Both the position numbers and the translations under genes were made by a program. The notes below the pieces were generated by a model. It did no database searches and was not told the origin of the DNA. It saw nothing but the letters and a program-made list of their open reading frames with translations. Below, one piece after another: positions 1 through 42,528 of a stretch of 64,000 bases of DNA; the first letter of the stretch is position 1, and every line of letters starts with the position of its first letter. Source of the stretch: an uncultured Candidatus Saccharibacteria bacterium. Its GTDB lineage: Bacteria > Patescibacteriota > Minisyncoccia > Phycocordibacterales > UBA2100. The stretch covers positions 42,065-106,064 of the forward strand of contig CAZPGE010000002.1 of assembly GCA_964586255.1 (NCBI GenBank). Reading direction: 5' to 3'.

Positions 1-1239
1 CCCGACACGGGCGCCGAGGAGACTCGCCCTTCAGTCGACGACGGGCCGTTTGCCGCGCTGGTCTTCAAGCTCCAGACCGACCCATTCGTGGGCGCGCTCA
101 CCTTCTTCCGTGTCTACTCTGGCTCTATCAACACGGGCGATACGGTATACAACTCCGCCAACAACAAGCGCGAGCGCATCGGCCGCATGGTGCGCCTTCA
201 GGCGGACAAGCGCGAGGAAATAAAGTCGGTCTACGCCGGTGAAATCGCTGCTGTCGTCGGTATGAAGGAGGTGAAAATCGGTCACACGCTCTGCGATGCA
301 GACCACCCGATTGCACTCGAATCGATCGTGTTCCCTGAACCGGTTGTCTCGATGCGCGTCGAGCCGAAGACAAAGGCCGACCAAGAGAAGATGGGCATCG
401 CGCTCAGCAAACTTTCCGACGAAGACCCGACATTCCGCGTGCACTCCGACCCCGAGACGATGGAAACTATCATCTCAGGCATGGGCGAGCTCCATCTCGA
501 CATCATCGTCGACCGCATGAAGCGCGAGTTCGCGGTGGAAGCGACGACCGGTAAGCCGCAGGTCGCGTACCGCGAGACGATTCAGGGCACTTCCGATGTG
601 GAATACAAGCACATCAAGCAGACAGGTGGTCGCGGTCAGTACGGTCACGTGAAAATCAAGGTGAAGCCGCTTGAGCCAATCGTGGAAGGCGAAAAGATAA
701 AGAACAATGTTGACCGCGAAGATCACTTCGAGTTCGTCAACAACATCAAGGGTGGCGTCATTCCTCAGGAATACATTCCGGCAGTCAAAAAGGGCCTCAA
801 AGAGGGAATGGAGCGCGGCGTGCTCGCCGGCTTCCCACTCGTCGATGTATCGGTAGACCTCTACGATGGTAGCTACCACGATGTGGACTCTTCGGAAATC
901 GCTTTCAAGCTCGCTGCTCTCTATGCATTCCAGGAGGGTTTACAGAAAGCCAAGCCCGTCATCCTTGAGCCAATCATGAAGCTGGAAGTCGTCATGCCGG
1001 AGAAGTTCATGGGTGATGTGACCGGCATGATCAACTCGAAACGCGGCACCATCGAAGCGATGGGAGAGCGCGGCCAGGCGCGCGTAGTCACCGCAAAGGT
1101 CCCGCTCTCGGAAATGTTCGGATTCACTACGCAGCTCCGCTCTCTCACTGAGGGTCGCGGCGTCCCAAACCTCGAGTTCTCTCACTACGCCGTCGTCCCG
1201 CGCAACGTCCAGGATGAGATCGTCGCTTCCAGAAAGTAA
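1..1239 (+). CDS. fusA: Elongation factor G, C-terminal ~410 aa (5' end lies upstream of the window; frame 1 is open from base 1)
   Basis: Translation [41 protein letters not shown]... matches EF-G domains II-V. Ends TAA at 1237-1239. A GC hairpin follows. Confidence 0.95.
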
Positions 1240-1260
1240 TACCACTCAGCATACGGAGTG

Positions 1261-1285
1261 CGCGACCCCGCTGTGCGGGGTCGCG
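1261..1285 (+). terminator. Perfect GC-rich hairpin CGCGACCCCG-ctgt-GCGGGGTCGCG followed by a T-rich tract; likely fusA terminator
   Basis: Inverted repeat read directly. A TATACT -10-like hexamer (1286-1291) lies just upstream of the next ATG (1299). Confidence 0.5.
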
Positions 1286-1298
1286 CTATACTGTTTTC

Positions 1299-3968
1299 AT
1301 GTTTAAAAAAGCCGCAGGAGCTCTTGCGATGTTCGCTCTCCTCGCTCCATCCTTAGCGTCTGCCGAGTGTCCCACGCTTTCCCTTGGTTCCACCGGCGCA
1401 CACGTAACAGCAGTACAAGCAGTGCTGCAAAGTGCATATACCAACTTCCCGACGCCGACTGGGTACTTTGGTCCTCTTACGCTCGCTGCAGTTAAGCAAT
1501 GGCAAGAAGAGCATGGCATTGAGCCAGTAGGCGCGGTGGGACCAAAGACTGCCACTGCGATGAAGCTCTCGTGCACCACAGAGACACCAGTCACTTCTCC
1601 TACCGCGACTGCACCAAGCAATCCTGCGGCCACCCCTTCGGCAAGCCCAGAACAAGTTCGCACTCTCGTGCGTGGTCTCTCGGGTTCTGACGTCCTTACA
1701 CTCCAACAGTTCCTCATCGCACAGAAGCTCCTTACTGCCGAGAATGCCACGGGCTTCTTCGGCGCACTCACAGAAGCGGCGGTGAAAGCATTCCAATCTC
1801 AAAACAAGCTCGTCTCAATCGGCGCGCCAAGTACGACCGGCTATGGGGCGGTGGGGCCGAGGACACGGGGTGCGATGGCCCTCACAAGCACGGGGAACGG
1901 GGAAAAAGTATCAGGTAATACGACAACGACTGCGTACCTTCTTCCCACGTCGACCACATACGTACCGCCAACACCGCCAATCGTTCCACTAACACCAACC
2001 TCGCCAATCGTCCCGCAGGCTCCATCTTCATGCAGCTTTAACGGTCAATCGATTGCATCCGGAGCCACAGTGAGCGCATATCAATCAGCCTCCGTTGCTT
2101 CCGGGAGTCAGTGCGTCTCGCAAGCGCGTACTTGTACGAACGGGACGCTTAGTGGCTCGTATACAAACGCGGGTTGTACGGTTGCAGGATTACCGGCACC
2201 AAGCTGCACCATTTCCTACACACCGTCTAGTGTGTCGAGCGGCCAGCCCTACGTGATTAACTGGACCTCACAAAACGCCACCTCGCGCCTCTATTCCGTG
2301 AAGAAGCCCGACGGAACATATCTGGTACAAAACGGCGGCGTGAGCGTAGGTACCGGAAGCTATACAGACACGACTGCAAGCGCGCAACTCTCGCCCGGCA
2401 CCTATACTCGTACTGATACTGTGACGGGAGCCGGTGGAACTGCCACGTGTACTGCGACCATCGCCGTCGCTGCCTCCGCGTCCGCAAATTCATGCACGCT
2501 CAACGGTCAAACCGTCGCGCATGGAGCGAGCGTAATTGCATATCAAGCCCCGTCCGTCGCATACGGGAATCAATGCGTGTCCCAAACGCGCACATGCGCA
2601 AACGGTACACTCAGCGGGTCGTATGCCAATGCGGCTTGCACGGTGGCGGCAGCCCCTCAATTGCCAATCGTAGTCCAGACCTCATCATCAGCAACAGGAT
2701 ACCCCGCCAGCAATATGCTCGACGGCTCTGCTTCGACCGCATGGGTCGCATCGCTTCAGCCTATAGGCGTAAATAACTTTGCATGGATCCAACTCGATTT
2801 GGGCTCGCGACGCTATGTAGATAAGGTTGAATGGACGTCAGCATCACAGCCGTACCCCGCGAGCGTTCTCAAAAATTACGTAATTAAAGTATCCGACGAC
2901 GGCGCCGTATGGACACCAATCGTCGCGCATTTCGAACCGCACACTGCGGCGCCTGCGTACGTGCAAAAAAAATCGATAGGCAAAAACGCGCGCTATATCA
3001 GAATCGAGACGACCAAGGTCAACGATGGGACTGGCTGGGCAGCAAGTATCGCCGAACTTTCAATCACGAGTGAGCCACAAAAAGATCTGTCATACACGTG
3101 CGATATTACGATCACACCGTCAGAGGATTACATCACTCGTATCGGTTCTCTTCGTGGGGGTACCGCGGAGCGTTGGACAAACGTGTGTTTGCAACCCGGC
3201 ACGTACACCAGCGCCGTGCGCATCCATGATGCACAATATCTTCGGATCTTGGCACCAAGTGGCGGAGTCACTTTCACTGCCTCTGTTAGGTACGTTGCGG
3301 GCAACTCGGCACCTTTCAATGTATGGGATTCGCACGACATACATATACAGGACATCAAGATAATAAACACCTATGCGTACACCACGACTGCCGATTCAAC
3401 CTCGCAATGGTCGCATGCGCTGAGAATTGCTCGCACCAACAATCTGACCTTGGAGAAGGTTGATTTGGTTTCAAACGGGAAGCAGGCGGTCTATATGGAA
3501 AGCAGCGATAATATACTCTTCAATGGCGGCTCTATTAAAGGCTACTACTTCCTCTTTAGTCCTGCGGATAAGAATTCCATCTACACCTACAACACCACTT
3601 TCACAACCGACGGCAGTGTGCAAATACCTGGCGATGAACATTCGATGCTTTGGATCGACGCCGGGGATGTCGTTTTGGATAGTAGCTATTTCAACATGAT
3701 TACCGGCAAAGGTTTATTTACCGGCGGCGGCGGCACACATAGCCGACTCGTAATAACGGGTGCGACACGAGCATCGGGTCTCAGTCACTGGGCAGATAAC
3801 CATCAAAATTACAGCAACATGCACGTCTACGTGACCGGAGCGTATCCGGCGCTAACTCCTTTCTACAATTATGCCGACGGGGGGAATGCGGCGAATTCCT
3901 TTGTGTGCACGTATTCTGGCGCTTCAGCCCCGCTGAGCGCAATAGGATGTTCGTATCCACTCAGATAA
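1299..3968 (+). CDS. Secreted multidomain protein (889 aa)
   Basis: N-terminal signal peptide MFKKAAGALAMFALLAPSLASA. Two PG_binding_1-like repeats (...GYFGPLTLAAVKQWQEEHGIEPVGAVGPKT...). Thr/Pro-rich linker. Two internal Cys-containing repeats (CSFNGQSIASGATVSAYQ...CTNGTLSGSYTNAGCTV / CTLNGQTVAHGASVIAYQ...CANGTLSGSYANAACTV). An F5/8-type-C (discoidin)-like segment (...SNMLDGSASTAWVAS...NNFAWIQLDLG...). C-terminal beta-helix-like region. Confidence 0.75.
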   Translation: MFKKAAGALAMFALLAPSLASAECPTLSLGSTGAHVTAVQAVLQSAYTNFPTPTGYFGPLTLAAVKQWQEEHGIEPVGAVGPKTATAMKLSCTTETPVTSPTATAPSNPAATPSASPEQVRTLVRGLSGSDVLTLQQFLIAQKLLTAENATGFFGALTEAAVKAFQSQNKLVSIGAPSTTGYGAVGPRTRGAMALTSTGNGEKVSGNTTTTAYLLPTSTTYVPPTPPIVPLTPTSPIVPQAPSSCSFNGQSIASGATVSAYQSASVASGSQCVSQARTCTNGTLSGSYTNAGCTVAGLPAPSCTISYTPSSVSSGQPYVINWTSQNATSRLYSVKKPDGTYLVQNGGVSVGTGSYTDTTASAQLSPGTYTRTDTVTGAGGTATCTATIAVAASASANSCTLNGQTVAHGASVIAYQAPSVAYGNQCVSQTRTCANGTLSGSYANAACTVAAAPQLPIVVQTSSSATGYPASNMLDGSASTAWVASLQPIGVNNFAWIQLDLGSRRYVDKVEWTSASQPYPASVLKNYVIKVSDDGAVWTPIVAHFEPHTAAPAYVQKKSIGKNARYIRIETTKVNDGTGWAASIAELSITSEPQKDLSYTCDITITPSEDYITRIGSLRGGTAERWTNVCLQPGTYTSAVRIHDAQYLRILAPSGGVTFTASVRYVAGNSAPFNVWDSHDIHIQDIKIINTYAYTTTADSTSQWSHALRIARTNNLTLEKVDLVSNGKQAVYMESSDNILFNGGSIKGYYFLFSPADKNSIYTYNTTFTTDGSVQIPGDEHSMLWIDAGDVVLDSSYFNMITGKGLFTGGGGTHSRLVITGATRASGLSHWADNHQNYSNMHVYVTGAYPALTPFYNYADGGNAANSFVCTYSGASAPLSAIGCSYPLR

Positions 3969-4061
3969 TCCACTCAATACGTCATGCGCCCATCGTCGTT
4001 TCATATTGAAATCTATTGCCACGTTTCTTCTGCGCGGCCTTTGCGGTGATACTATAAAAGA

Positions 4062-4649
4062 ATGTCGCTTCGCTCAGTGATTCTCTTGGTGCTCGCAGTC
4101 GCATTTGTTCCGCAGCTCACTTTTGCTGTGCTCAAAATCAACGATGCGGTCACCATCAACGGCGACCTTACGGTGACGGGCGCCCTGAGCAAGAGCTCCG
4201 GCTCATTTGTCATCGACCACCCCCTCGACCCGAAGAATAGACTGCTCTATCACTCGTTTGTCGAATCAGAAGATGTGATGAACACGTATGCCGGTCGCGC
4301 AACGCTCGACGCAGACGGCAGTGCGACGATACGCCTCCCGAGCTACTTTATGTCGCTCAACAAAGATTTTCGCTACTTTGCAACGCCGGTCGGGCAATCG
4401 ATGCCAAATTTGCACCTCTCTATAGGGGTCAAGCCGCAGTTTCTCGGACTCTTCGGCGAGCCGATATTCTCAATCTCAGGCGGGAACGCTGGTGGACAAG
4501 TAAGCTGGATGGTGACCGGTATCCGCCACGATCCGTATATTCTTGCAAACCCAATCATCCCTGAAGTCCAAAAAGGTTTGAGCGCGCCCTACTCACAGGG
4601 GATGTATGTGCACCCCGAGCTCTATGCGCCGTCTGCACAGCAAGAATAG
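4062..4649 (+). CDS. Secreted protein with a conserved ~150-aa domain (paralog 1 of 3)
   Basis: Signal peptide present. Domain ...IDHPLDPKNRLLYHSFVESEDVMNTY...MPNLH...SWMVTGIRHDPYILANPIIPEV... is shared with the next two genes. Confidence 0.7.
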   Translation: MSLRSVILLVLAVAFVPQLTFAVLKINDAVTINGDLTVTGALSKSSGSFVIDHPLDPKNRLLYHSFVESEDVMNTYAGRATLDADGSATIRLPSYFMSLNKDFRYFATPVGQSMPNLHLSIGVKPQFLGLFGEPIFSISGGNAGGQVSWMVTGIRHDPYILANPIIPEVQKGLSAPYSQGMYVHPELYAPSAQQE

Positions 4650-4650
4650 T

Positions 4651-5199
4651 ATGAGGAAATTCTTGGTATTCAGCGTTGTTATCTTCGTCGCGCTCGCAAG
4701 TGCGCCGCTTGCACGCGCGGCGCTCACTATCAACGCAAATTTTCTGGCAAAGAGCACTTTCTCAATCACGGGCTCAGTCTCAAAGGGTGCGGGGACGCTG
4801 GTCATCGACCATCCGCTCGACCCAAAAAACAAACTGCTCTACCACTCATTCGTCGAGTCGCCGGATGCCATGAATCAATACAACGGCATTGCGGCTCTCG
4901 ATGAGAATGGCGAAGCAACCATTCAGCTACCGGATTATTTCGAAGCGCTCAATATGAAATTTACCTATCAATTTTTCCCGATGCATGAGGCAATGCCGAA
5001 CCTGCACATTAAACAAAAGATTCAGGACAACGCGTTTACTATCGGGGGCGGGATCCCTGGTGGTGAGATTTCTTGGATGGTCACCGGTATTCGCCACGAC
5101 CCGTACATCCTCGCGAACCCAATTATTCCCGAGGTAGAGAAGGGCCCGGACCAGCTTGTCGACAAGGGTGAGTGTATTTTTGCTCCACTATGCAAATAA
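4651..5199 (+). CDS. Secreted protein, paralog 2 of the same domain family (likely start MRKFLVFS at 4651; the ORF-track start 4606 overlaps the upstream gene)
   Basis: Signal peptide MRKFLVFSVVIFVALASAPLARA. ...IDHPLDPKNKLLYHSFVESPDAMNQY...EISWMVTGIRHDPYILANPIIPEVEKGPDQLV... Confidence 0.7.
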   Translation: MRKFLVFSVVIFVALASAPLARAALTINANFLAKSTFSITGSVSKGAGTLVIDHPLDPKNKLLYHSFVESPDAMNQYNGIAALDENGEATIQLPDYFEALNMKFTYQFFPMHEAMPNLHIKQKIQDNAFTIGGGIPGGEISWMVTGIRHDPYILANPIIPEVEKGPDQLVDKGECIFAPLCK

Positions 5200-6578
5200 A
5201 ATACTTCAGCACGATCTTCGCGATGTTTTTTCTTGCCATACCGGTATCCGCTTCTGCAACCACTATTTTTCTTACCTCCGGCAGCAGTTGGACTGTCCCT
5301 TCCGATTGGGGCACGCCTAATTCCGTCGAATGTATCGCCGCCGGCGGAGGAGGCGGTCGCGGCGGAGGAGGCGCAGGCGGTGGTTACGCCAAAGCGGTAA
5401 ACATATCTCTTACGGCAGGCAGTAGCGTCAGCATAAGTGTGGGCACTGGCGGCGCAGGCAATCTGGGCGGCACGGGTGGTACGGGTGGAACAACATCATT
5501 CGGCAGTGCATGTAGTGCAGGCGGCGGAACGGGCGGGCTGGACGGTTACAACAACACTGGCGCAGGCGGTACCGGAGGCAGTGGAACCGTCGGTTCAACT
5601 TTGCGCACAGGCGGTAATGGTGGTGCGTACGGTGCAGGTTTACCGGGGACCGGAGGTGGTGGCGGTGGCGCAGCGGGAGCTAGTACTAACGGCACCTCAG
5701 GTAGTGCTGGTGTTGGCTTCGCTACCTCTGGTGGCAATGGTGGCGCTGGCGGAGGAGGATCTGGTGGTAGCGGAGGTGCAGGTGCCACTACTATAGGTGC
5801 CGCTGGTGCTGCTGGCGGTACCGGGACTAACTACGATGCCTCTCATGGCTCAGGTGGCGGCGGGGGCGGGGGTCAGGGAAGCTATTGGAGTCCCGGTTAC
5901 AATGCAGGTAACGGCGGCGCCGGCGGCTCGTATGGCGGCGGGGGCGGAGGCGGAGGTCAGGGTTATACCATTGACGGCACAGGCGGGAATGGAGGTGCGG
6001 GACTTATTATCGTCACCTATACACCAAGGTTGCCCTCAGCAAGTCGCGATCTCACGGTGAATGATTCGGTCTCTGTTGCGGGCAATGTCACGGTGGTCGC
6101 CAATCTTGCGAAGGGCTCTGGCACGTTCCTCATCGACCATCCGGCAGATCCCGCCAACAAACTTCTCTATCACTCTTTTGTAGAATCTCCTGATGCGCTC
6201 AATGAGTACGCAGGCACAGCTGAGGTCGGGAAGAATGGTGACGTGGCCATACGACTTCCGGATTATTTTGAAGCGCTCAATGGCAATCCGCAGTATTTTA
6301 TTCGAGCGCTCGATATGCCGATGCCCAATCTCTTCGTCAAACAAGAAGTAAAAGATAATGAATTTGTAGTTGGAGGCGGAAGTCCTGGCGGCGAGATTTC
6401 TTGGATGGTCACCGGTATTCGCCACGACCCGTACATTCTGGCCAATCCCATCATTCCCGAAGTTGAGAAAGGCCCGGACCAGCTCGTTGGCAAAGGGGAG
6501 TATGTGTTTGCGGGGAATGCGCCGACGTGTTCGACGCTCGCTCGTTGTGTGTGGGATTTCATGAGACGGTTCTTCTAG
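5190..6578 (+). CDS. Glycine-rich secreted protein ending in paralog 3 of the 150-aa domain
   Basis: Signal peptide. ...SGSSWTVPSDWGTPNSVECIAAGGGGGRGGGGAGGGY... Long GGxGG low-complexity region. C-terminal ...IDHPADPANKLLYHSFVESPDALNEY...EISWMVTGIRHDPYILANPIIPEVEKGPDQLV. ATG 5190 overlaps the upstream stop. Confidence 0.7.
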   Translation: MQIKYFSTIFAMFFLAIPVSASATTIFLTSGSSWTVPSDWGTPNSVECIAAGGGGGRGGGGAGGGYAKAVNISLTAGSSVSISVGTGGAGNLGGTGGTGGTTSFGSACSAGGGTGGLDGYNNTGAGGTGGSGTVGSTLRTGGNGGAYGAGLPGTGGGGGGAAGASTNGTSGSAGVGFATSGGNGGAGGGGSGGSGGAGATTIGAAGAAGGTGTNYDASHGSGGGGGGGQGSYWSPGYNAGNGGAGGSYGGGGGGGGQGYTIDGTGGNGGAGLIIVTYTPRLPSASRDLTVNDSVSVAGNVTVVANLAKGSGTFLIDHPADPANKLLYHSFVESPDALNEYAGTAEVGKNGDVAIRLPDYFEALNGNPQYFIRALDMPMPNLFVKQEVKDNEFVVGGGSPGGEISWMVTGIRHDPYILANPIIPEVEKGPDQLVGKGEYVFAGNAPTCSTLARCVWDFMRRFF

Positions 6579-6603
6579 ACGCACCTGTACCCAATCGTGC
6601 GCA

Positions 6604-6625
6604 AAATCCCTCTTGCGAGGGATTT
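6604..6625 (+). terminator. Hairpin AAATCCCTC-ttgc-GAGGGATTT
   Basis: Inverted repeat directly after the 6578 stop. Followed by TATACT and the next start. Confidence 0.45.
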
Positions 6626-6639
6626 GGTGATTTATACTA

Positions 6640-7122
6640 GTGTGTATGGATGATCGACGAGAGCTCCTCATCGGCATGGCTGCAATCGCAATATTTGCGG
6701 TCTGCATATACCTGCTCGCAAACATGGGCAAAGCTCCCGCTTCTCCCGCTGATACGATTCCTGCAGCGACACCGATTCCTCCGTACACTGAAAAGATAGA
6801 AGCCGCGCTCGCAAAGAGTGAGGGCTTCGAGATGTTTGTTTCCTACACCGACCGTGGATTCGAGCCTATGAGTACTACAATAAAAAAGGGGGACACGGTG
6901 CGCTTCACCAACAATTCGCCGCGCAAGCTCTGGATAGCGGCGAGCTCCGAAGGTGGCGTGAAGCTCTATCCGGGTACATCGGAGTGCGGCGCAAGCGCAT
7001 TTGGCACCTGCGAACCACTCGAGCCACAAGAATTCTGGGAATTTACATTTACAGAGACTGGTACGTGGAAGTATCACAACAGTCTCAACAAGAGTGATGC
7101 CGCCTCCATACGGGTCCAATGA
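6640..7122 (+). CDS. Small membrane-anchored protein with a possible cupredoxin-like beta domain
   Basis: N-terminal TM helix. ...KKGDTVRFTNNS...WEFTFTETGTWKYHN... resembles a cupredoxin/EfeO-like fold, but the ligand set is unclear. Stop overlaps the next start (ATGA). Confidence 0.45.
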   Translation: MCMDDRRELLIGMAAIAIFAVCIYLLANMGKAPASPADTIPAATPIPPYTEKIEAALAKSEGFEMFVSYTDRGFEPMSTTIKKGDTVRFTNNSPRKLWIAASSEGGVKLYPGTSECGASAFGTCEPLEPQEFWEFTFTETGTWKYHNSLNKSDAASIRVQ

Positions 7123-9080
7123 GAAAATATCTTTTTGTTTTTTTTCTCATATTTTTCCCGCAAATCGCATTTGCGGGTTCGCAGACGTATTCATCGCAAG
7201 GGTCATACACGTTTACGGTGCCAGCTAGTACGTACAGTGTCACCATGCAGATGTGGGGCGGCGGTGGTGGGGCCGGGGGATATGATGCATTGGACCCAGG
7301 ATCGGGCGGGGGCGGAGCCTATACGACCGGTGCCATCACGGTGGTGCCTGGGCAACAAATAACTGTTGTTGTCGGCGGACCAGGGGGTGGAGGCGTGAGT
7401 TGCGCTGCAGGCGGGCCAGGAGGTGCGGGCGGATACAACGGCGGTGCTTCTGGCGGTGCGTCAGGCCCCTATGGCTGTTCTGGTGCCGGCGGCGGTGGGG
7501 GAGGTGCCAGCAGTGTAATCGTAAATGGCGTCACAACTCTTGTAGCCGGTGGCGGTGGCGGAGGTGGAGGTGGTGGCTGGCATGCAGTCGGCGGAGCTGG
7601 CGGTGTTGGTGGAGCGAGCGGTGCAAGCGGCAATGTCACGACTGGCGGAGCAGGAGAGGCACATTCGTTTGACGGTGGTGGCGGCGGCGGAGGAGGTGGA
7701 GGCATAGCTGCTGGCGGCGGCGGAGGAATTGCGGGATGCGACTGCGGTGGTACCGGTGGTACCGGTGGTTCATCGCTCGGCACCGTGACACAAGGCTCAG
7801 GTATATACCCTGGAAATTATGGCAGCTCAGGTGGTTATGGATATGGGGGGCAGACGTATGGTCAATCCGGAACGTCGGGTAGAATCGACGTCACGTGGAC
7901 AGTGACCGCCCCCACCTGCTCCGTCACTCTCACACCCTCCACCATCGGATACGGTTCTTCCTCCACGCTCACCTACTCTTCTACCAACGCGACCACTCTC
8001 TATATAAACAACATCGGGTACGTGAGCACGAGTGGGGGAAGCACATCAGTCTCGCCATCGTCAACGACAAATTATTCATGCACAGCCACCGGTCCGGGGG
8101 GCACGGGCACGCAAGCGGCATCGCTCACCGTGACAGCACCGTCTGTCCCATCCGCCACCATCACCGCAAGTTCTTCTGCTATATACGTCGGACAATCGAC
8201 AGGTATCCGTGCGACATTTGCTGCCGGTTCCGGTGACACACTCACCGGAGACAACATAGATTCGCCAGTCGGCACCGGTCTCGGTGCGTCGACCAACCCC
8301 GACGCCAACAAGTGGTACACATTCACGCCATCTTCCGCGGGCACGTACACGTTCTACGCTCGCGCAAAGAGTGCGTACTACACGTCGTGGACCACATACG
8401 GCACCGTAGCGGTCACCGTGACGGCGGCACCCGCGTGCACACTCTCGCTCACTCCCTCCACCGTCGCACAGGGAAATTCATCTACACTCGCATACTCGTC
8501 GAGCAACGCGACTACATTCTCTGTGAGTAGCATTGGCTCTCTCACGCCCAACATCTCCGGGAGCACCAGTGTGTCTCCGAGTGTCTCCACCACCTACACG
8601 GGTAGTGCCACCGCCGGGGGAGTCACCAATACCTGCTCCGCCACCCTCTCTGTCTCCTGCACCGCCGCATACTCCTGCTCAAGTCAGACCATCCAGTACA
8701 CTGACGCCGCGTGTGCAGTCTCCGACGTCACCACCTGTGCCTCTCCGGCATTCTGCTCGAGCGGCTCCGCGACCTGTCTCTACGCACCCGTCGAGTACGT
8801 CGCAAGCGGAAGCCTCACTGGTCACCTCCAAGCAGCACCACAAATCGTCACGCAAGGAACAGCCACGAGGCTCTACTGGAATCTCAGCAACGTAGAGAGC
8901 TGTACCGTCACCGGTACCAACGGTGACTCATACTCCGGTGCTGCTTCTCCCACAGGAGGACGACAGACCTCCACGATTGAGCAACAGACCATCTACACCC
9001 TTTCCTGTGCTGGCTCCGACGGCTCCAGTGTGCAGGAGACACAGACCGTGAATATACTGCCGGTGTTTAATGAGCAATGA
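7119..9080 (+). CDS. Glycine-rich surface protein with tandem Ig-like domains (653 aa)
   Basis: Signal peptide MRKYLFVFFLIFFPQIAFAGSQTYSSQGSYTFTVPASTYSVTMQMWGGGGGAGG... C-terminal 389 aa are identical to the next gene. Ig-like repeats (..TLTPSTIGYGSSSTLTYSSTNAT..YSCTATGPGG..). Ends ...NILPVFNEQ. Confidence 0.7.
   Translation: MRKYLFVFFLIFFPQIAFAGSQTYSSQGSYTFTVPASTYSVTMQMWGGGGGAGGYDALDPGSGGGGAYTTGAITVVPGQQITVVVGGPGGGGVSCAAGGPGGAGGYNGGASGGASGPYGCSGAGGGGGGASSVIVNGVTTLVAGGGGGGGGGGWHAVGGAGGVGGASGASGNVTTGGAGEAHSFDGGGGGGGGGGIAAGGGGGIAGCDCGGTGGTGGSSLGTVTQGSGIYPGNYGSSGGYGYGGQTYGQSGTSGRIDVTWTVTAPTCSVTLTPSTIGYGSSSTLTYSSTNATTLYINNIGYVSTSGGSTSVSPSSTTNYSCTATGPGGTGTQAASLTVTAPSVPSATITASSSAIYVGQSTGIRATFAAGSGDTLTGDNIDSPVGTGLGASTNPDANKWYTFTPSSAGTYTFYARAKSAYYTSWTTYGTVAVTVTAAPACTLSLTPSTVAQGNSSTLAYSSSNATTFSVSSIGSLTPNISGSTSVSPSVSTTYTGSATAGGVTNTCSATLSVSCTAAYSCSSQTIQYTDAACAVSDVTTCASPAFCSSGSATCLYAPVEYVASGSLTGHLQAAPQIVTQGTATRLYWNLSNVESCTVTGTNGDSYSGAASPTGGRQTSTIEQQTIYTLSCAGSDGSSVQETQTVNILPVFNEQ
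7911..9077 (+). repeat. Copy 1 of a perfect 1167-bp direct repeat (offset 1808 bp)
   Basis: Nucleotide identity from cccacctgctccgtcactctc... to the last sense codon. All internal six-frame ORFs are duplicated with identical translations. Divergence only at the stop (TGA vs TAG). Confidence 0.9.
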
Positions 9081-10888
9081 AAAAGTATCTCTTCATTCTT
9101 TTGTGCGTGTTTCTTCCGCAGGTTGCACTTGCGGGTTCGCAAACGTATTCGACTCCCGGCAGCTACTCTTTTACCGTGCCGTCGCATGGGACGCTTACAG
9201 TTACGGTGTGGGCCGGTGGTGGAGGAGCCAGCAACTATTATGCCGCCAACTATCCTGGACAAGCCGGTGGAACGTCATCTTTCAATGGAAGTGTAGTGGC
9301 ATACGGAGGCGCAACGAGCGACGTGTGCGGTTTCGGCGCTGGCGCGGGAGGAACCGCCTCGGGAGGAGACAGTAATTATACGGGTGGTGCGGGTGGTGCG
9401 GGCTCCGGGAAATCAGTCGGAGGAGTTGGAGGAAATGGCGCAAACGGTGGTGGAGCCGGGGGAGCTTATGATTACTCTACACTCAATGGTCTCCCTGGAA
9501 GCGCGCCAGGTGGCGGTGGAGCGGGACGCGCGGGCTGTGACGGCGCTGGCGGTGGCGGCGCTTCGGTTAAGACATACACATCTGGCCAACTCACCGTAGG
9601 CGGCTCCGTGTCTGTGGTTGTCGGTGCCGGTGGAGTCGCGGGGGTTGCCCCTATTTCATTGTCGGCTGGTGCCGGAGCGCCTGGTCAGGTCACCATCACC
9701 TGGACTGACCCACCTGTACCCACCTGCTCCGTCACTCTCACACCCTCCACCATCGGATACGGTTCTTCCTCCACGCTCACCTACTCTTCTACCAACGCGA
9801 CCACTCTCTATATAAACAACATCGGGTACGTGAGCACGAGTGGGGGAAGCACATCAGTCTCGCCATCGTCAACGACAAATTATTCATGCACAGCCACCGG
9901 TCCGGGGGGCACGGGCACGCAAGCGGCATCGCTCACCGTGACAGCACCGTCTGTCCCATCCGCCACCATCACCGCAAGTTCTTCTGCTATATACGTCGGA
10001 CAATCGACAGGTATCCGTGCGACATTTGCTGCCGGTTCCGGTGACACACTCACCGGAGACAACATAGATTCGCCAGTCGGCACCGGTCTCGGTGCGTCGA
10101 CCAACCCCGACGCCAACAAGTGGTACACATTCACGCCATCTTCCGCGGGCACGTACACGTTCTACGCTCGCGCAAAGAGTGCGTACTACACGTCGTGGAC
10201 CACATACGGCACCGTAGCGGTCACCGTGACGGCGGCACCCGCGTGCACACTCTCGCTCACTCCCTCCACCGTCGCACAGGGAAATTCATCTACACTCGCA
10301 TACTCGTCGAGCAACGCGACTACATTCTCTGTGAGTAGCATTGGCTCTCTCACGCCCAACATCTCCGGGAGCACCAGTGTGTCTCCGAGTGTCTCCACCA
10401 CCTACACGGGTAGTGCCACCGCCGGGGGAGTCACCAATACCTGCTCCGCCACCCTCTCTGTCTCCTGCACCGCCGCATACTCCTGCTCAAGTCAGACCAT
10501 CCAGTACACTGACGCCGCGTGTGCAGTCTCCGACGTCACCACCTGTGCCTCTCCGGCATTCTGCTCGAGCGGCTCCGCGACCTGTCTCTACGCACCCGTC
10601 GAGTACGTCGCAAGCGGAAGCCTCACTGGTCACCTCCAAGCAGCACCACAAATCGTCACGCAAGGAACAGCCACGAGGCTCTACTGGAATCTCAGCAACG
10701 TAGAGAGCTGTACCGTCACCGGTACCAACGGTGACTCATACTCCGGTGCTGCTTCTCCCACAGGAGGACGACAGACCTCCACGATTGAGCAACAGACCAT
10801 CTACACCCTTTCCTGTGCTGGCTCCGACGGCTCCAGTGTGCAGGAGACACAGACCGTGAATATACTGCCGGTGTTTAATGAGCAGTAG
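9077..10888 (+). CDS. Glycine-rich surface protein, paralog with a different N-terminal domain and identical C-terminal half (603 aa)
   Basis: MKKYLFILLCVFLPQVALAGSQTYSTPGSYSFTVPSHGTLTVTVWAGGGGA... ATGA overlap with the upstream stop. The 3' 1167 bp are identical to 7911..9077. Confidence 0.7.
   Translation: MKKYLFILLCVFLPQVALAGSQTYSTPGSYSFTVPSHGTLTVTVWAGGGGASNYYAANYPGQAGGTSSFNGSVVAYGGATSDVCGFGAGAGGTASGGDSNYTGGAGGAGSGKSVGGVGGNGANGGGAGGAYDYSTLNGLPGSAPGGGGAGRAGCDGAGGGGASVKTYTSGQLTVGGSVSVVVGAGGVAGVAPISLSAGAGAPGQVTITWTDPPVPTCSVTLTPSTIGYGSSSTLTYSSTNATTLYINNIGYVSTSGGSTSVSPSSTTNYSCTATGPGGTGTQAASLTVTAPSVPSATITASSSAIYVGQSTGIRATFAAGSGDTLTGDNIDSPVGTGLGASTNPDANKWYTFTPSSAGTYTFYARAKSAYYTSWTTYGTVAVTVTAAPACTLSLTPSTVAQGNSSTLAYSSSNATTFSVSSIGSLTPNISGSTSVSPSVSTTYTGSATAGGVTNTCSATLSVSCTAAYSCSSQTIQYTDAACAVSDVTTCASPAFCSSGSATCLYAPVEYVASGSLTGHLQAAPQIVTQGTATRLYWNLSNVESCTVTGTNGDSYSGAASPTGGRQTSTIEQQTIYTLSCAGSDGSSVQETQTVNILPVFNEQ
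9719..10885 (+). repeat. Copy 2 of the 1167-bp direct repeat
   Basis: Same as copy 1. Confidence 0.9.
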
Positions 10889-11124
10889 GGTTGGGGCCTC
10901 TGCGGAGAGGTTTTCTTGACGCTCACACCTCGTTTGCTAGTATGTGCCCACGCACGCTCTGTGCGTTTCTTTCTTGTCCTGCGTAGCCTTGCGCGAAGCA
11001 GGATGCCGAAACTTCTTTCGTGCAGACTAGCAAACTGCGCCAAGCGATAGAAGAAGGAGGGGGAGAATACCGGAGCACCCAAACGCGTTGGCATTATAAA
11101 TTACTAGGCTAATACTATATTTGT

Positions 11125-12327
11125 ATGGCAGCAGAAGAATTCAATCGAACAAAGCCGCACGTGAACGTCGGTACGATTGGTCACGTCGACCACGGAAAGA
11201 CCACGCTCACTGCAGCAATCCTCACGGTGCTCTCGAAGGCCGGCCAAGGCTACGGTGCTACGGTGAAGGGCGTCGATGACATCGACAAGGCGCCGGAAGA
11301 AAAGGCGCGCGGTATTACCATCTCGCTCTCGCACTCCGAGTACGAGACGCCGACGAGACACTACGCTCACGTCGACGCTCCTGGTCACGCCGACTACATT
11401 AAGAACATGATCACCGGTGCCGCCCAGATGGACGGCGCAATCCTCGTCATCGCAGCGTCGGACGGCGTCATGCCTCAGACACGCGAACACGTCCTCCTCG
11501 CCAAGCAGGTCGGCGTGCCAAAGATGATCGTCTTCCTCAACAAGGTAGACCAGGTGGACGACAAAGACCTCATCGACCTCGTCGAAGAGGAAGTCCGCGA
11601 CTTGCTCGAGAAGCAGGGCTTCGACGGCAAGAACACTCCGATAATCCGCGGCTCAGGCCTCAAGGCTCTCGAGAATCCGGAGCAGGGCAACGAGTGGTCG
11701 GACAAGGTCATGGAGCTCATCAAGGCGCTCGATGAATACATCCCAACACCGGAGCGCGACACCGCAAAGCCATTCCTCATGGCTATCGAAGACGTCTTCT
11801 CAATCGAAGGCCGCGGCACCGTCGTCACGGGCCGCATCGACCGCGGTATCGTGAAGGTCGGCGAAGAAGTTGAAATCATCGGTATTCACGACACAGCCAA
11901 GACGACTGTGACGGGTGTCGAAATGTTCAACAAGTCTCTCCAGCAGGGGCAGGCCGGCGACAACGCAGGCATCTTGCTCCGCGGTACCAAGAAAGACGAC
12001 GTCCACCGCGGACAGATTCTCGCGAAGCCGGGCTCTGTGAAGCCGCACACTGAATTCGAGGCAGAGGTATACATCCTCTCCAAGGAAGAAGGCGGTCGTC
12101 ACACTCCGTTCTTCTCGGGCTACAAGCCACAGTTCTACGTCCGCACCACGGACGTGACGGGCGAAGTGACCCTCAATGAGGGCGTAGAGATGGTGATGCC
12201 GGGCGACACCGTGACCTTCAAGGTCAAGCTCGTCGCTCCCATCGCCCTCGAAGACCAGATGCGCTTCGCAATCCGCGAAGGCGGCAAGACCGTCGGCGCA
12301 GGCGTCGTGACCAAAATCACCGCCTAA
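11125..12327 (+). CDS. tuf: Elongation factor Tu
   Basis: [18 protein letters not shown] and NKVD motifs. Full-length 400 aa. Confidence 0.97.
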
Positions 12328-12457: not shown

Positions 12458-12488
12458 TGTGCACAATTCGTGACAATATATGTGCACA
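12458..12488. promoter_or_regulatory. Two copies of palindromic TGTGCACA (12458-12465, 12481-12488) plus related TGCACA motifs upstream of the fic gene; candidate operator
   Basis: Seen directly: tatgtgcacaattcgtgacaatatatgtgcacataa. Confidence 0.35.
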
Positions 12489-13594
12489 TAAGATTTATGG
12501 TATTTAACCCCCAGACACCCTTTCAAGAGCTTCCAAATATTCCACCAGAGGAAGAGCTTTTTAACGATATTTCGATATTGAAGCTAGTGAATAAGGCCAA
12601 CAGTTCATTACACGAACTGAAGGGAGCTGCGCACGTGCTCCCGAATCGTTTTATGCTCATGTCCCCATTTTCGATTCGCGAAAGCGTGGCGAGCAACAGT
12701 ATAGAGAACATTCACACGACAGTAGCTGACGCCTTGAAGGCAGATGCTCTTTACAAAGAGTCAACAGTTAAAGGGGCGAACAAGGAAACGTTGAATTATC
12801 GAGACGCGCTCATGGCAGGCTACCGACGACTAACAGAGAATGGTTTTCTCAATACAAATGACTTCATACATATACAATCGATACTCGAACCCCAGAAACA
12901 GGGAATACGCAACGTTCCAGGCGTTGCTATAAGAAATTCTGTCACGAAAGCAGTGATATATACGCCACCTGAGGGGCCTGAGCTACTCCGATCGAAACTC
13001 AAGAATCTTGAGGATTATTTCAACAGCAAGAATGGTTTTGATGACGTGGATCCGCTTATTCGAGCGGCCATTTTGCATTATCAGTTCGAGGCGATACATC
13101 CATTTCTGGACGGAAATGGAAGAACAGGAAGAATAATCCTTGTGCTGTACCTGATTGCTGTCGGAGGGCTCGATTTGCCCGTGCTCTTCCTCAGTAAATA
13201 CCTTCTAGACCACCGTGAAGATTATTACCGGCTACTTCTGAAGGTCAGCGCGGAGAATGACTGGAAAGAATGGGTCACTTTCATGCTTAAGGCTATTGAC
13301 GAGCAAGCTAAGGAAACAAGACAAAGAATCATGCAAATCAAACGCTTGATGGAGGAGTATAGGCACATTGAAGAAAGGCGAGGGTCGGCGATTATGACGG
13401 CGAAAATGATGAACTACCTCTTCGCAAACCCCTACTACACTGTCAAAACAATGACAGAAACACTGGGTGTGCATCGCAACACAGCTCGACACTATTTCGA
13501 CGAGTTACAGAGGTTGGAAATCGTCAAGAAGTTTAAGGATGGGAGAGAAAACGTTTACTACAATCAGAAATTCCTGGACATACTGAATAGCTAA
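12470..13594 (+). CDS. Fic/Doc family protein (AMPylation-type), C-terminal wHTH-like region; alternative start 12497
   Basis: Canonical Fic motif HPFLDGNGRTGR. Confidence 0.85.
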   Translation: MTIYVHIRFMVFNPQTPFQELPNIPPEEELFNDISILKLVNKANSSLHELKGAAHVLPNRFMLMSPFSIRESVASNSIENIHTTVADALKADALYKESTVKGANKETLNYRDALMAGYRRLTENGFLNTNDFIHIQSILEPQKQGIRNVPGVAIRNSVTKAVIYTPPEGPELLRSKLKNLEDYFNSKNGFDDVDPLIRAAILHYQFEAIHPFLDGNGRTGRIILVLYLIAVGGLDLPVLFLSKYLLDHREDYYRLLLKVSAENDWKEWVTFMLKAIDEQAKETRQRIMQIKRLMEEYRHIEERRGSAIMTAKMMNYLFANPYYTVKTMTETLGVHRNTARHYFDELQRLEIVKKFKDGRENVYYNQKFLDILNS

Positions 13595-14005: not shown

Positions 14006-14055
14006 CGGCCGCGTTCGCGCGGCCGTTTTGCTTTGTATAAAAAACGGCTAAGAAA
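14006..14055 (+). repeat. Recurring terminator-like element CGGCCGCGTTCGCGCGGCCG+TTTTGCTTTGTATAAAAAACGGCT (copy 1 of 4)
   Basis: GC hairpin plus T-run. Near-identical copies at 16184, 16802 and 17798, each downstream of a small gene. Confidence 0.7.
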
Positions 14056-16183: not shown

Positions 16184-16247
16184 CGGTCGCGTTCGCGCGG
16201 CCGTTTTGCTTTGTATAAAAAACGGCTTAAAAACCCCAAGAAATCAG
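16184..16247 (+). repeat. Hairpin/linker repeat copy 2 (cggTcgcgttcgcgcggccg ttttgctttgtataaaaaacggcttaaaaaccccaagaaatca)
   Basis: Direct sequence match to 14006.. and 13629.. Confidence 0.7.
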
Positions 16248-17797: not shown

Positions 17798-17936
17798 CGG
17801 CCGCGTTCGCGCGGCCGTTTTGTTTTTTTGCTATAGCGATGCCTCGCTGCCTACGTTTTTTCATAGAACGGTTCTCTGTAAATACCGGAAAAACGGCCTA
17901 ATCCGCCAGGTGGTGGATCCAAGAAATCAAAAGGCC
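17798..17936 (+). repeat. Composite repeat copy 4 (hairpin + catagaacggttctctgtaa + degenerate linker)
   Basis: cggccgcgttcgcgcggccg identical to the copy at 14006. Confidence 0.65.
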
Positions 17937-38300: not shown

Positions 38301-39335
38301 TTGTTTATGACGTATTCGTCTTTCTCTCAGATTGTTCGTCCACATATCCGCGCGCGCCTGTATCTCGTCGTGCTCCTCGCGCTCACCGCAATGCTTGTTG
38401 CGGGTCTCAGTGCTCACAATACAAGCGAGACGTTTGCATCTGCCGAAGTCGAATTCACCGACATTTCTGCACGCGGCATGCACATAGTCCCGGCGTCGTG
38501 CCCTTCGGACCAGCACTACGTGGGGGAGTGCGGCCCGGCTACATGCACGCCGCCCTACACTGGCACCTATCCCAACTGTGTCTACGTACCTCCGGGTACG
38601 GGCGGTCCTGGCGGTGGCGGTGGTGGAATCCCGGGTGTCTCTGGAAATGCGTGCGTTATCGTGCTGAGTCCATCCACGATTACCCTCGGAGGGAGTTCTG
38701 CGATGTCGTGGAATTCAAGTTATTCAGTATTCGGCATTCCGTTTGCCATGAGCGGTACCATCTCTCCCACTCCTGGCGCTGTGGCCGCGTCGGGCGCGAC
38801 GACCGTGAGCCCATCGGTGTCTACCACATACATCGGAACGTTTACCTCAACCGGCGAAGGCCGCCTTCTGGGGGACAAGGGTTCGGGTTGGTTTTCGCCC
38901 GTTACATGCAGTGCTCGCCTCACGGTAATTCCTGCGAATGAAGTGCCTGGAAGTTGCAGTGTGTACAACTTTTGTAGAGGATCGGATGTCTACCAACGGA
39001 CAGCTAGCTGCACAGACCAATTTGTCCGAAGCTGTGCATTTGGATGTGCAAACGGCGTGTGTCTTGGCGCCCCTGCGCCCACCGGATTCTTGCGCGCGCA
39101 GCCCTCGCTTGTGCGACAGGGCGACACAACGACAGTGGAGTGGGGTGCAACGCAGGTGAGCTCGTGTACCGTGACTGGTACCAACGGAGACTCATGGAGT
39201 GGTAAAAGCGGGACGCAGACATCGAGGGATATTACTTCGAGGACCACATACACACTTTCGTGCATTGGACTCGATGAATCTGTGCTTGAGATGACCGCGG
39301 TGGTCAATGTTACGCCAATATTCGATGAGCAGTAG
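38301..39335 (+). CDS. Secreted protein with Gly-rich stretch, 6-Cys module and C-terminal Ig-like domain
   Basis: C-terminal ...CTVTGTNGDSWSGKSGTQTSRDITSRTTYTLSCIGLDESVLEMTAVVNVTPIFDEQ* parallels the ...NILPVFNEQ* ends of the 7119 and 9077 proteins. Confidence 0.6.
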   Translation: MFMTYSSFSQIVRPHIRARLYLVVLLALTAMLVAGLSAHNTSETFASAEVEFTDISARGMHIVPASCPSDQHYVGECGPATCTPPYTGTYPNCVYVPPGTGGPGGGGGGIPGVSGNACVIVLSPSTITLGGSSAMSWNSSYSVFGIPFAMSGTISPTPGAVAASGATTVSPSVSTTYIGTFTSTGEGRLLGDKGSGWFSPVTCSARLTVIPANEVPGSCSVYNFCRGSDVYQRTASCTDQFVRSCAFGCANGVCLGAPAPTGFLRAQPSLVRQGDTTTVEWGATQVSSCTVTGTNGDSWSGKSGTQTSRDITSRTTYTLSCIGLDESVLEMTAVVNVTPIFDEQ

Positions 39336-41679: not shown

Positions 41680-42528
41680 ATGGCTATCAAAACCTACAAA
41701 CCAACATCAAAGTCGCAGCGTCAGCATACGTCTATCGACTACCGTAAGGCGCTCTCCGGTCACAAGCCGCTCAAGAGTCTCCTCAAGGGAAAGAAGCGCA
41801 TGGGCGGACGCAACAGCTTCGGCCGCATCACCGTGCGTCACCAGGGTGGCGGGCACAAAAAGCGCCTCCGCGATGTCGACTTCACGTTTGAGAAGAAGAA
41901 CATTCCTGCAAAGATAACCTCTATCGAGTACGACCCATTCCGCTCAGCATTCATCGGTCTTGCAGTCTATGCAGACGGTGCAAAGACCTACATCGTGCTC
42001 CCGCAGAAGGTCAAAGTCGGAGATACGTTTATCGTGAGCGAGACCGCACCGATAAAACTTGCCAATCGTTTGCCGCTCGCAAACATGCCGGTCGGTACAT
42101 TCGTATACAACATTGAGCTCAAGCCAGGCGCGGGAGGCCGTATCGCACGATCTGCCGGCAACTACGCGGAAGTCGTCGCACAGGATGCCGGATACACGCA
42201 CCTCAAGATGCCTTCAACAGAAATTCGCCGCGTCATCGGTACCTCATGGGCGTCCGTCGGGGAAGTCTCCAACGAAGAACACCGCCTCGAGAATTGGGGT
42301 AAGGCAGGCCGCACGCGCTGGAAGGGTATCCGCCCGACTGTCCGCGGTACTGCGATGAACCCTGTCGACCACCCGCACGGCGGAGGTGAAGGTAAGCAGG
42401 GTCGCGGTCACCGCAGGCAGCGCACCATGTGGGGCAAGCCATCCGGTAAGGGCCAAAAGACGCGCCGTCCAAAGAAGTACAGCAATGTCTTCATTGTCAC
42501 GCGTCGAAAAGTGGGTAAACGAAAATAA
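41680..42528 (+). CDS. rplB: 50S ribosomal protein L2
   Basis: ...HQGGGHKKRLR...GTAMNPVDHPHGGGEG... Confidence 0.96.
   Translation: MAIKTYKPTSKSQRQHTSIDYRKALSGHKPLKSLLKGKKRMGGRNSFGRITVRHQGGGHKKRLRDVDFTFEKKNIPAKITSIEYDPFRSAFIGLAVYADGAKTYIVLPQKVKVGDTFIVSETAPIKLANRLPLANMPVGTFVYNIELKPGAGGRIARSAGNYAEVVAQDAGYTHLKMPSTEIRRVIGTSWASVGEVSNEEHRLENWGKAGRTRWKGIRPTVRGTAMNPVDHPHGGGEGKQGRGHRRQRTMWGKPSGKGQKTRRPKKYSNVFIVTRRKVGKRK

Follow-up and report, generated by a model that had tools for sequence, protein, structure and literature searches.

In a 64,000-nt stretch of DNA from an uncultured Candidatus Saccharibacteria bacterium (contig CAZPGE010000002.1 of assembly GCA_964586255.1, forward-strand positions 42,065 to 106,064; hereafter, the window), two adjacent genes, A and B, were found to encode secreted proteins with different glycine-rich heads and a common C-terminal tail of 389 amino acids (aa). 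The genes lie between fusA (88–1239) and tuf (11125–12327), on an island some 10 kb long, and their tails are identical over 1166 bp of DNA, whereas their heads have diverged deeply. In the best-supported reading, which the sequences make rather probable, the part encoding the tail, or stalk, would have undergone recurrent intragenomic gene conversion up to the limits of homology, under diverged binding heads.

The repeat and its presence in the underlying data

Direct comparison of window positions 7911–9076 and 9719–10884 revealed identity at 1166 of 1166 positions. The left edge of this identity was sharp, the bases preceding 7911 and 9719 being different. At the right edge, the 1167th base differed (A at 9077 and G at 10885), so that the last codon was CAA in gene A and CAG in gene B, both encoding Gln; the stop codons were TGA and TAG, respectively. 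Therefore, the repeat described in the initial annotation was real, but the 1167 bp of identity up to the stop codons claimed there were one base too long. This pair was the sole long exact repeat within the window, and a chance origin of a perfect match of 1166 bp is impossible. The heads occupied 792 bp (264 aa) in gene A and 642 bp (214 aa) in gene B, in agreement with the distinct heads of about 790 and 640 bp with GSQTYS..GSY.FTVP starts that had been proposed, and the overlap of the gene A stop with the gene B start within ATGA (9077–9080) was likewise found as described.

In the AlphaFold model of gene B (predicted local distance difference test score, pLDDT, 86), the tail consisted of the immunoglobulin (Ig)-like domains d1, d2 and d3, a Cys-rich knot and a further Ig-like domain, d4. 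Foldseek matches of the tail were generic strings of Ig-like domains (best E about 4e-9; template modelling scores 0.2–0.36). The model and these matches bore out the earlier description of two secreted proteins with different Gly-rich heads and identical Ig-like tails.

An independent assembly of the same organism (100% identity), made with megahit at k=141 (ENA sample ERZ27247837), was reached via exact look-ups of elongation factor Tu (EF-Tu) and of the 158-aa cupredoxin-like protein encoded directly upstream of gene A. Similar look-ups of the exact products of gene A and gene B and of the 889-aa peptidoglycan (PG)-binding protein gave no match. Contig k141_1173019 (178.8 kb) corresponded to window positions 1–8051 at 100% and ended exactly 141 nt into copy 1 of the repeat, and contig k141_1400151 (325.9 kb) corresponded to the window from position 10744 onward at 100% and began with exactly the last 141 nt of copy 2. 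Breaks at 141 nt are those of a k=141 de Bruijn graph that merges at 7911/9719 and splits at 9076/10884; therefore, the repeat and its boundaries were present in the underlying data. In view of these independent contigs, an assembly duplication as the cause of the tandem layout was not supported. In addition, the path from the cupredoxin-like gene into head A was unbranched, and a branch was present at the 3' end of the tail. Consequently, head B must follow a tail, and a mixture of alleles from two strains could be ruled out as the source of the tandem layout.

It could still be supposed that the degree of identity was inflated during assembly, i.e., that the tails are real and very similar, not identical, and that a collapsed graph edge was walked twice as a simple loop. 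The assembler of the window may have written one such edge twice, hiding a few single-nucleotide polymorphisms (SNPs) or a copy number of the tail-headB loop exceeding one. Indeed, the exact repeat is longer than the insert sizes of short reads, the megahit assembly of the same organism failed to cross it, and both copies in the window end exactly at the expected branch points of the graph. However, the k141 contigs demonstrate that the two copies really have at least their first and last 141 nt in common, and for a related organism with a similar repeat (L003 and L004, see below), two assemblies each crossed a different copy and the same 1038 bp were obtained. Moreover, even with a few hidden SNPs, the heads would still have to be regarded as much older than the tails. 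Assembly-inflated identity was considered unlikely, and it is a partial caveat rather than an alternative origin.

Divergence of heads and tails and the origin of the identity

Between the two tails of the window, 1 of 312 synonymous sites differed (synonymous divergence, dS, 0.003), whereas over the first 65 head codons dS was about 1.3 and the nonsynonymous divergence (dN) was 0.38. A single recent duplication cannot explain both values. Homology between head A and head B, and between their family profiles, was limited to approximately the first 65–68 positions, and the remainder could not be aligned. The closest tail found, that of L008, was 91% identical in aa and 85% in nt (dS 0.55), and the other tails were 74% identical or less; the dN/dS ratio of about 0.12 relative to L008 indicated that the tail is under purifying selection between genomes. 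The closest relative of head B was the head of P0001 (86% aa identity). The tail of P0001 was only 73–74% identical to that of the window, in a mosaic manner (d1, 90%; d2, 66%; d3, 61%; Cys-rich knot, 82%; d4, 73%). Thus, the histories of head and tail were uncoupled.

Pairs of tail genes at various stages of similarity were found in other genomes. Loci L003 and L004 overlapped at 100% and represent one organism sampled twice; here, two tail genes with heads of different types are split by a cupredoxin-like gene, and their last 1038 bp are 100% identical. This tract starts after d1, a boundary unlike that in the window, and the contigs of both L003 and L004 break 102–119 nt into it. In the tandem pair of L001, both heads are of type I and the tails are 78% identical with an exact run of 118 bp, the chance expectation of which is about 1e-10 according to the author's rough estimate (0.78^118 x about 1200 positions). 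In L020, the identity of the tails was 83%, rising to 92% over a 138-bp patch, and in L006 it was 77%. In a neighbour-joining tree, tails of the same genome (the L001 pair and the L003/4 pair) clustered together in 200/200 bootstraps. Therefore, the features of concerted evolution were present: similarity was higher within genomes than between them, the adjacent segment was deeply diverged, and the tracts varied in length and boundary across genomes. Both the contrast in dS and these varied tracts support the ongoing gene conversion suggested in the initial annotation.

The very recent duplication suggested there as well was insufficient alone. The junctions between the cupredoxin-like gene and gene A and between genes A and B both read CAATGA(G/A)AAA(A/G)TATCT; hence, the pair descends from a tandem duplication of a whole gene, and breakpoints between CA and ATGA and between GAGCA and GTAG account for the single differing base. 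The layout headA-tail-headB-tail cannot, however, be derived from one tandem duplication. At least two events are needed, and the heads must either have been replaced later or have been old already.

According to the gene conversion reading, genes A and B would be co-transcribed and translationally coupled paralogues encoding secreted fibre-like proteins. Their heads would have diverged anciently, and their 1166-bp tails would have been homogenised recently by intragenomic homologous recombination. Conversion would extend to the limits of usable homology, set on the left by the transition from head to tail and on the right by the point where the open reading frame ends. The obligately C-terminal end of the stalk would hold the protein at the cell envelope, possibly via the cupredoxin-like membrane protein encoded upstream. 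The heads would bind different ligands, for which host-cell surfaces are plausible because cultivated Patescibacteria live as episymbionts.

A different course of events is possible but rather unlikely, namely, a very recent duplication of the whole gene, after which one head was swapped in by recombination with DNA of foreign origin or of another strain. In a further version, two alleles of the population, alike in the tail and different in the head, would have become joined head-to-tail through the CA microhomology. In favour of such a course, the junction signature is that of a whole-gene unit, no close relative of head A was found on this tail, and head types are clearly shuffled among tails across genomes. 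On the other hand, this course requires two precise events, as opposed to one process seen repeatedly in relatives at various stages and with various boundaries. The signal-peptide regions of genes A and B were only 55–72% identical in nt, so that under a head swap the left crossover is forced to lie outside the gene. For the fusion of two alleles, recombination at the population level would still be required to keep the tails identical.

Several points weigh against recurrent conversion beneath binding heads. Since no close relative of head A on this tail was found, head A may have been imported recently into a young duplicate. For a tract to end exactly at the last homologous base, conversion must have recurred or have been resolved at the very edge of homology, and the zero divergence inside the copies may partly reflect assembly collapse. 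As for the function of the proteins, their surface location, anchoring and ligand binding are predictions. Neither A nor B matched PF21722 (Gly_rich_2) or PF12810 (ALK Gly_rich) at E ≤ 0.1, and neither reached the Pfam gathering score for these families.

It was also considered whether the pair belongs to a device for programmed variation, i.e., a tail-fibre cassette of phage type, an invertible segment or shufflon, or the target of a diversity-generating retroelement (DGR). The fold of the heads is that of phage fibre tips, the heads match a phage protein family in PHROG, and DGRs are common in Patescibacteria. Nevertheless, such a device is highly improbable, for the locus is chromosomal and lies between fusA and tuf in many genomes, and the tail had no relatives in viral contigs or phages (IMG/VR and 50,697 phage records). 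The phage-like tail-fibre cassette mentioned in the initial annotation thus lost its support, only the head fold being common to these proteins and phage fibre tips; a prophage cassette was rejected as well, the neighbours being fusA, the PG-binding/discoidin protein, surface-protein genes and tuf. Switching of the Mu Gin or P1 Cin type was rejected because the repeats are direct, inverted repeats around the locus were limited to short matches at chance level, and no recombinase domain was found among the island genes searched. A DGR target was rejected because the copies had zero mismatches over 1166 bp, without the adenine-specific mismatches of a pair of template and variable repeats, and no reverse transcriptase turned up in the genes of the island, the remainder of the window having had no systematic scan for this enzyme.

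Properties of the heads and the tail

Both proteins start with a Sec-type signal peptide, ending in PQIAFA in protein A and in PQVALA in protein B and followed in each case by GSQ, the beginning of the GSQTYS..GSY.FTVP segment. Mature head A contains 40% Gly and seven GGG(G)n motifs, and mature head B contains 30% Gly. A fold of the tumour necrosis factor (TNF)-like plus glycine-rich (TG) type, i.e., a beta-sandwich with a lattice of extended glycine-rich segments, was found, and Foldseek agreed with this assignment. For head B, a TG-type fold is suggested by the N-terminal strands and glycine motifs that it has in common with head A. A search with head A alone gave weak matches dominated by glycine runs and no close relative. 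The family profile A4 matched the LTK sequence at 1e-4 and ALK at 3e-3, and among PHROG families, 2155 was matched by the glycine-rich head only. In cyanophage Pam3, a TNF-like plus glycine-rich domain makes up the distal tip of the fibre, and receptor recognition takes place there via variable loop ends (PMC9608196). Judging from the models, the fold of the heads is the same as that used by phage fibre tips and by ALK/LTK for target binding.

Across genomes, the Ig tail was found to carry at least three types of head, GSQTYS…FTVP, TIxLTSGSSWTVP and ALQQPAMYTPSC. The 468-aa gene in the island (Table 1) carries a head of the second of these types ('TIFLTSGSSWTVP'), which matched Gly_rich_2 below the threshold (E 1e-3, 19.6 bits relative to a cut-off of 24.3). 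This head type is fused to the Ig tail in P0013, P0016, P0017 and L006 and stands on a different tail here. Therefore, heads and tails are shuffled, and the island contains a second family of heads and tails.

Homologues came without exception from metagenome-assembled genomes of Patescibacteria or from metagenomes. A full HMMER scan of 1.84 billion representatives returned 558 tail clusters at E ≤ 1e-30. About 60 of the best 150 matches reached the end of the tail, and all of these terminated at the C-terminus of their own protein (the author's count). The C-terminal end P-x-F-x-E-x was conserved: P384 and E388 were invariant in 29 sequences (alignment A1), always one residue from the C-terminus, and F386 was invariant across the six closest tails (alignment A2). 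The C-termini of A and B (...VNILPVFNEQ) contained no LPXTG, no terminal hydrophobic segment and no PEP-CTERM or similar signal, and a sortase-anchored (LPXTG) adhesin was rejected accordingly. The P-x-F-x-E-x end (9060–9077 and 10868–10885 in the window, and in all homologues) may serve for docking or sorting, as a motif of a kind not described so far. No family in Pfam or NCBIfam matched A, B or the tail, except for a match to Y_Y_Y below the threshold. In the representative library, the Ig domain of the d1/d3 type was also observed in giant proteins (P0139 of 4314 aa, P0140, P0148 and others), in which it is repeated up to 43 times; apparently, this stalk domain is a widely reused building block.

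Parts of this arrangement are known from other systems. In Streptococcus pyogenes, the tandem genes mrp, emm and enn are adjacent surface-protein paralogues in which the wall-associated C-terminal parts are conserved and the N-terminal parts, which are used for binding, diverge; duplication and recombination have shaped these genes. Genes A and B resemble the emm-like genes in being adjacent paralogues with conserved C-terminal and divergent N-terminal parts. However, emm-like proteins are coiled-coil proteins anchored via LPXTG and sortase, whereas A and B have different folds and lack both LPXTG and a C-terminal transmembrane segment. The tail resembles the Aureispira grappling-hook protein GhpA in that serial Ig-like beta-sandwiches form a stalk, but GhpA is a giant protein of a predatory member of Bacteroidota, and the likeness is generic to the fold, without a sequence relationship.

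TG domains are found in fibre gp24 of cyanophage Pam3, in gp33 of mycobacteriophage Bxb1 ('tail wing brush') and in the ligand-binding region of ALK/LTK (PF12810; PF21722 for bacteria and phages). In phages, the domain is the C-terminal tip of a trimeric virion fibre, whereas heads A and B are N-terminal, follow a Sec signal peptide and stand on the Ig-like stalk of a cellular protein. Moreover, unlike phage TG fibres, genes A and B have neither an alpha-helical shaft nor a phage-type chaperone gene.

The closest evolutionary likeness is to babA/babB and homA/homB of Helicobacter pylori (Pride & Blaser 2002, as related in PMC3960876). As far as that account goes, these too are paralogous adhesin genes. 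Their 3' segments undergo concerted evolution by intragenomic recombination and are closer within a strain than between strains, whereas divergence is seen in the 5' or middle parts, which bind the ligand. The bab and hom loci differ from genes A and B in being dispersed rather than tandem and in encoding beta-barrel outer-membrane proteins of a Gram-negative bacterium with unrelated folds; according to the same account, RecA-dependent conversion was shown experimentally for them, whereas for genes A and B it is inferred. Since this evolutionary pattern is familiar from pathogens, what is surprising is the family, together with its setting, rather than the mechanism. Literature searches on bacterial polyglycine domains and on gene conversion among Patescibacteria returned no directly relevant work.

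The fusA-tuf island and the significance of the locus

The features of the locus are listed in Table 1. The module order given there for the tail of gene A was taken from the structure model of gene B.

Table 1. Positions of the two genes, their parts and neighbouring or related features in the window.
Feature	Positions	Strand	Product	Description
PG_binding_1 plus discoidin-domain protein	1299–3968			Island between fusA and tuf
Three tandem genes	4062–4649, 4606–5199, 5172–6578			Another C-terminal module in common
468-aa gene	5172–6578	+	468 aa	Second glycine-rich head type (TTIFLTSGSSWTVPSDW...) on a different C-terminal module
Terminator-like hairpin	6604–6625	+		AAATCCCTC-TTGC-GAGGGATTT; ends the upstream gene; from consensus scan
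Cupredoxin-like small membrane protein	6640–7122	+	160 aa	N-terminal transmembrane helix, Pro-rich linker, beta-sandwich
Gene A	7119–9080	+	653 aa	Signal peptide 7119–7175, head A 7176–7910, tail 7911–9077, stop TGA
Head A	7176–7910	+		TNF-like plus glycine-rich (polyglycine lattice) domain; predicted ligand- or receptor-binding tip
Repeat copy 1 (gene A tail)	7911–9076	+		Ig-like d1, d2, d3, Cys-rich knot, Ig-like d4; end ...LPVFNEQ
Gene B	9077–10888	+	603 aa	Signal peptide 9077–9133, head B 9134–9718, tail 9719–10885, stop TAG
Head B	9134–9718	+		Shorter glycine-rich head
Repeat copy 2 (gene B tail)	9719–10884	+		
Terminator-like hairpin	10950–10966	+		After gene B, upstream of tuf
Third, diverged paralogue	38301–39335	+	344 aa	d3, Cys-rich knot and d4 only (39.5% aa identity); end ...VTPIFDEQ

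The probable start of the cupredoxin-like gene is ATG 6646, which gives a product of 158 aa, and its stop overlaps the start of gene A within ATGA. The exact 158-aa product was present in 4 other assemblies. Matches of the gene product to plastocyanin and cupredoxin were weak and below the cut-off, and with two Cys and one His only, the protein probably does not bind copper. A homologue was encoded directly upstream of tail genes in L001, L002, L003/4, L006-L012, L014 and L019. Regardless of the head type, the cupredoxin-like gene was observed to precede almost every tail-bearing gene, often with ATGA coupling. The protein is a candidate anchor or assembly partner of the tail.

In L001, L002, L004, L006, L010, L011 and L014, as well as in expanded form in L020, a tail gene with the cupredoxin-like gene directly upstream also lay between fusA and tuf. 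Within this clade of Patescibacteria, the interval was seen to be a conserved site for the insertion of genes encoding secreted proteins. At its shortest, in L002, it measured about 3 kb and held a single tail gene and two cupredoxin-like genes; at its longest, in L020, it measured about 15 kb and included a histidine kinase and a response regulator. In the window, the C-terminal module shared by the three tandem genes comprises about 170 aa with 46–60% aa identity (repeat families D2 and D3).

The hairpin at 6604–6625 was found at the same place in L008, and it likely marks the 5' boundary of a transcription unit comprising the cupredoxin-like gene and genes A and B. Because the scan for promoters and terminators did not exceed the background of shuffled sequences, both hairpins serve as positional hints only. 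Elsewhere in the window, a 50-nt element occurred three times at gene ends (14006–14055, 16184–16233 and 17798–17847; 66–94% identity). It contains the GC-rich hairpin CGGCCGCGTTCGCGCGGCCG with a T run behind it, and it resembles an intrinsic terminator that has been used repeatedly.

The third paralogue lies just upstream of genes for a 164-aa membrane protein and for rplC-rplD-rplB, so that surface-protein genes are again embedded among ribosomal-protein operons. No tRNA genes and no Rfam families at the gathering score were found in the 64-kb window, despite its many genes for ribosomal proteins and translation factors. Directly after tuf, at 12470–13594, a protein of the Fic/DOC family is encoded, with Fic_N and Fic domains and a C-terminal domain like that of SoFic. 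This adjacency to tuf is curious, since some Fic/Doc toxins are known to target EF-Tu.

A more tentative idea, which may be doubted, is that the fusA-tuf island encodes a lineage-specific system of attachment fibres with one anchor and many heads. The module ending in PxFxE-x, i.e., the Cys-rich knot and the last Ig domain, would dock to the cupredoxin-like protein, interchangeable heads of two glycine-rich TG types and a third, non-glycine type would be shuffled onto the stalk by recombination, and the identical tails would both result from this exchange and drive it. If so, the direct repeats of 1.17 kb would allow head B to be lost or gained frequently within a population, so that host binding would be subject to a form of phase variation.

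The tail, its obligate C-terminal position, its cupredoxin-like partner and its location between fusA and tuf match no family described in the libraries searched. Beyond type IV pili, host recognition and attachment in Patescibacteria (Candidate Phyla Radiation) are largely unknown (PMC12206443). The locus indicates that the str operon region houses an uncharacterised family of secreted fibres; this family may be an attachment system of Patescibacteria and may be expressed in step with the translation genes fusA and tuf. This family is tractable, since it offers the 558 clusters mentioned above, a conserved partner gene and the prediction that the heads determine specificity and the tail anchoring. 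If the tails were indeed homogenised by gene conversion, the pair would be a clear-cut case of concerted evolution, found in a lineage whose genomes are tiny, in which the stalks are kept constant and the heads diversify.

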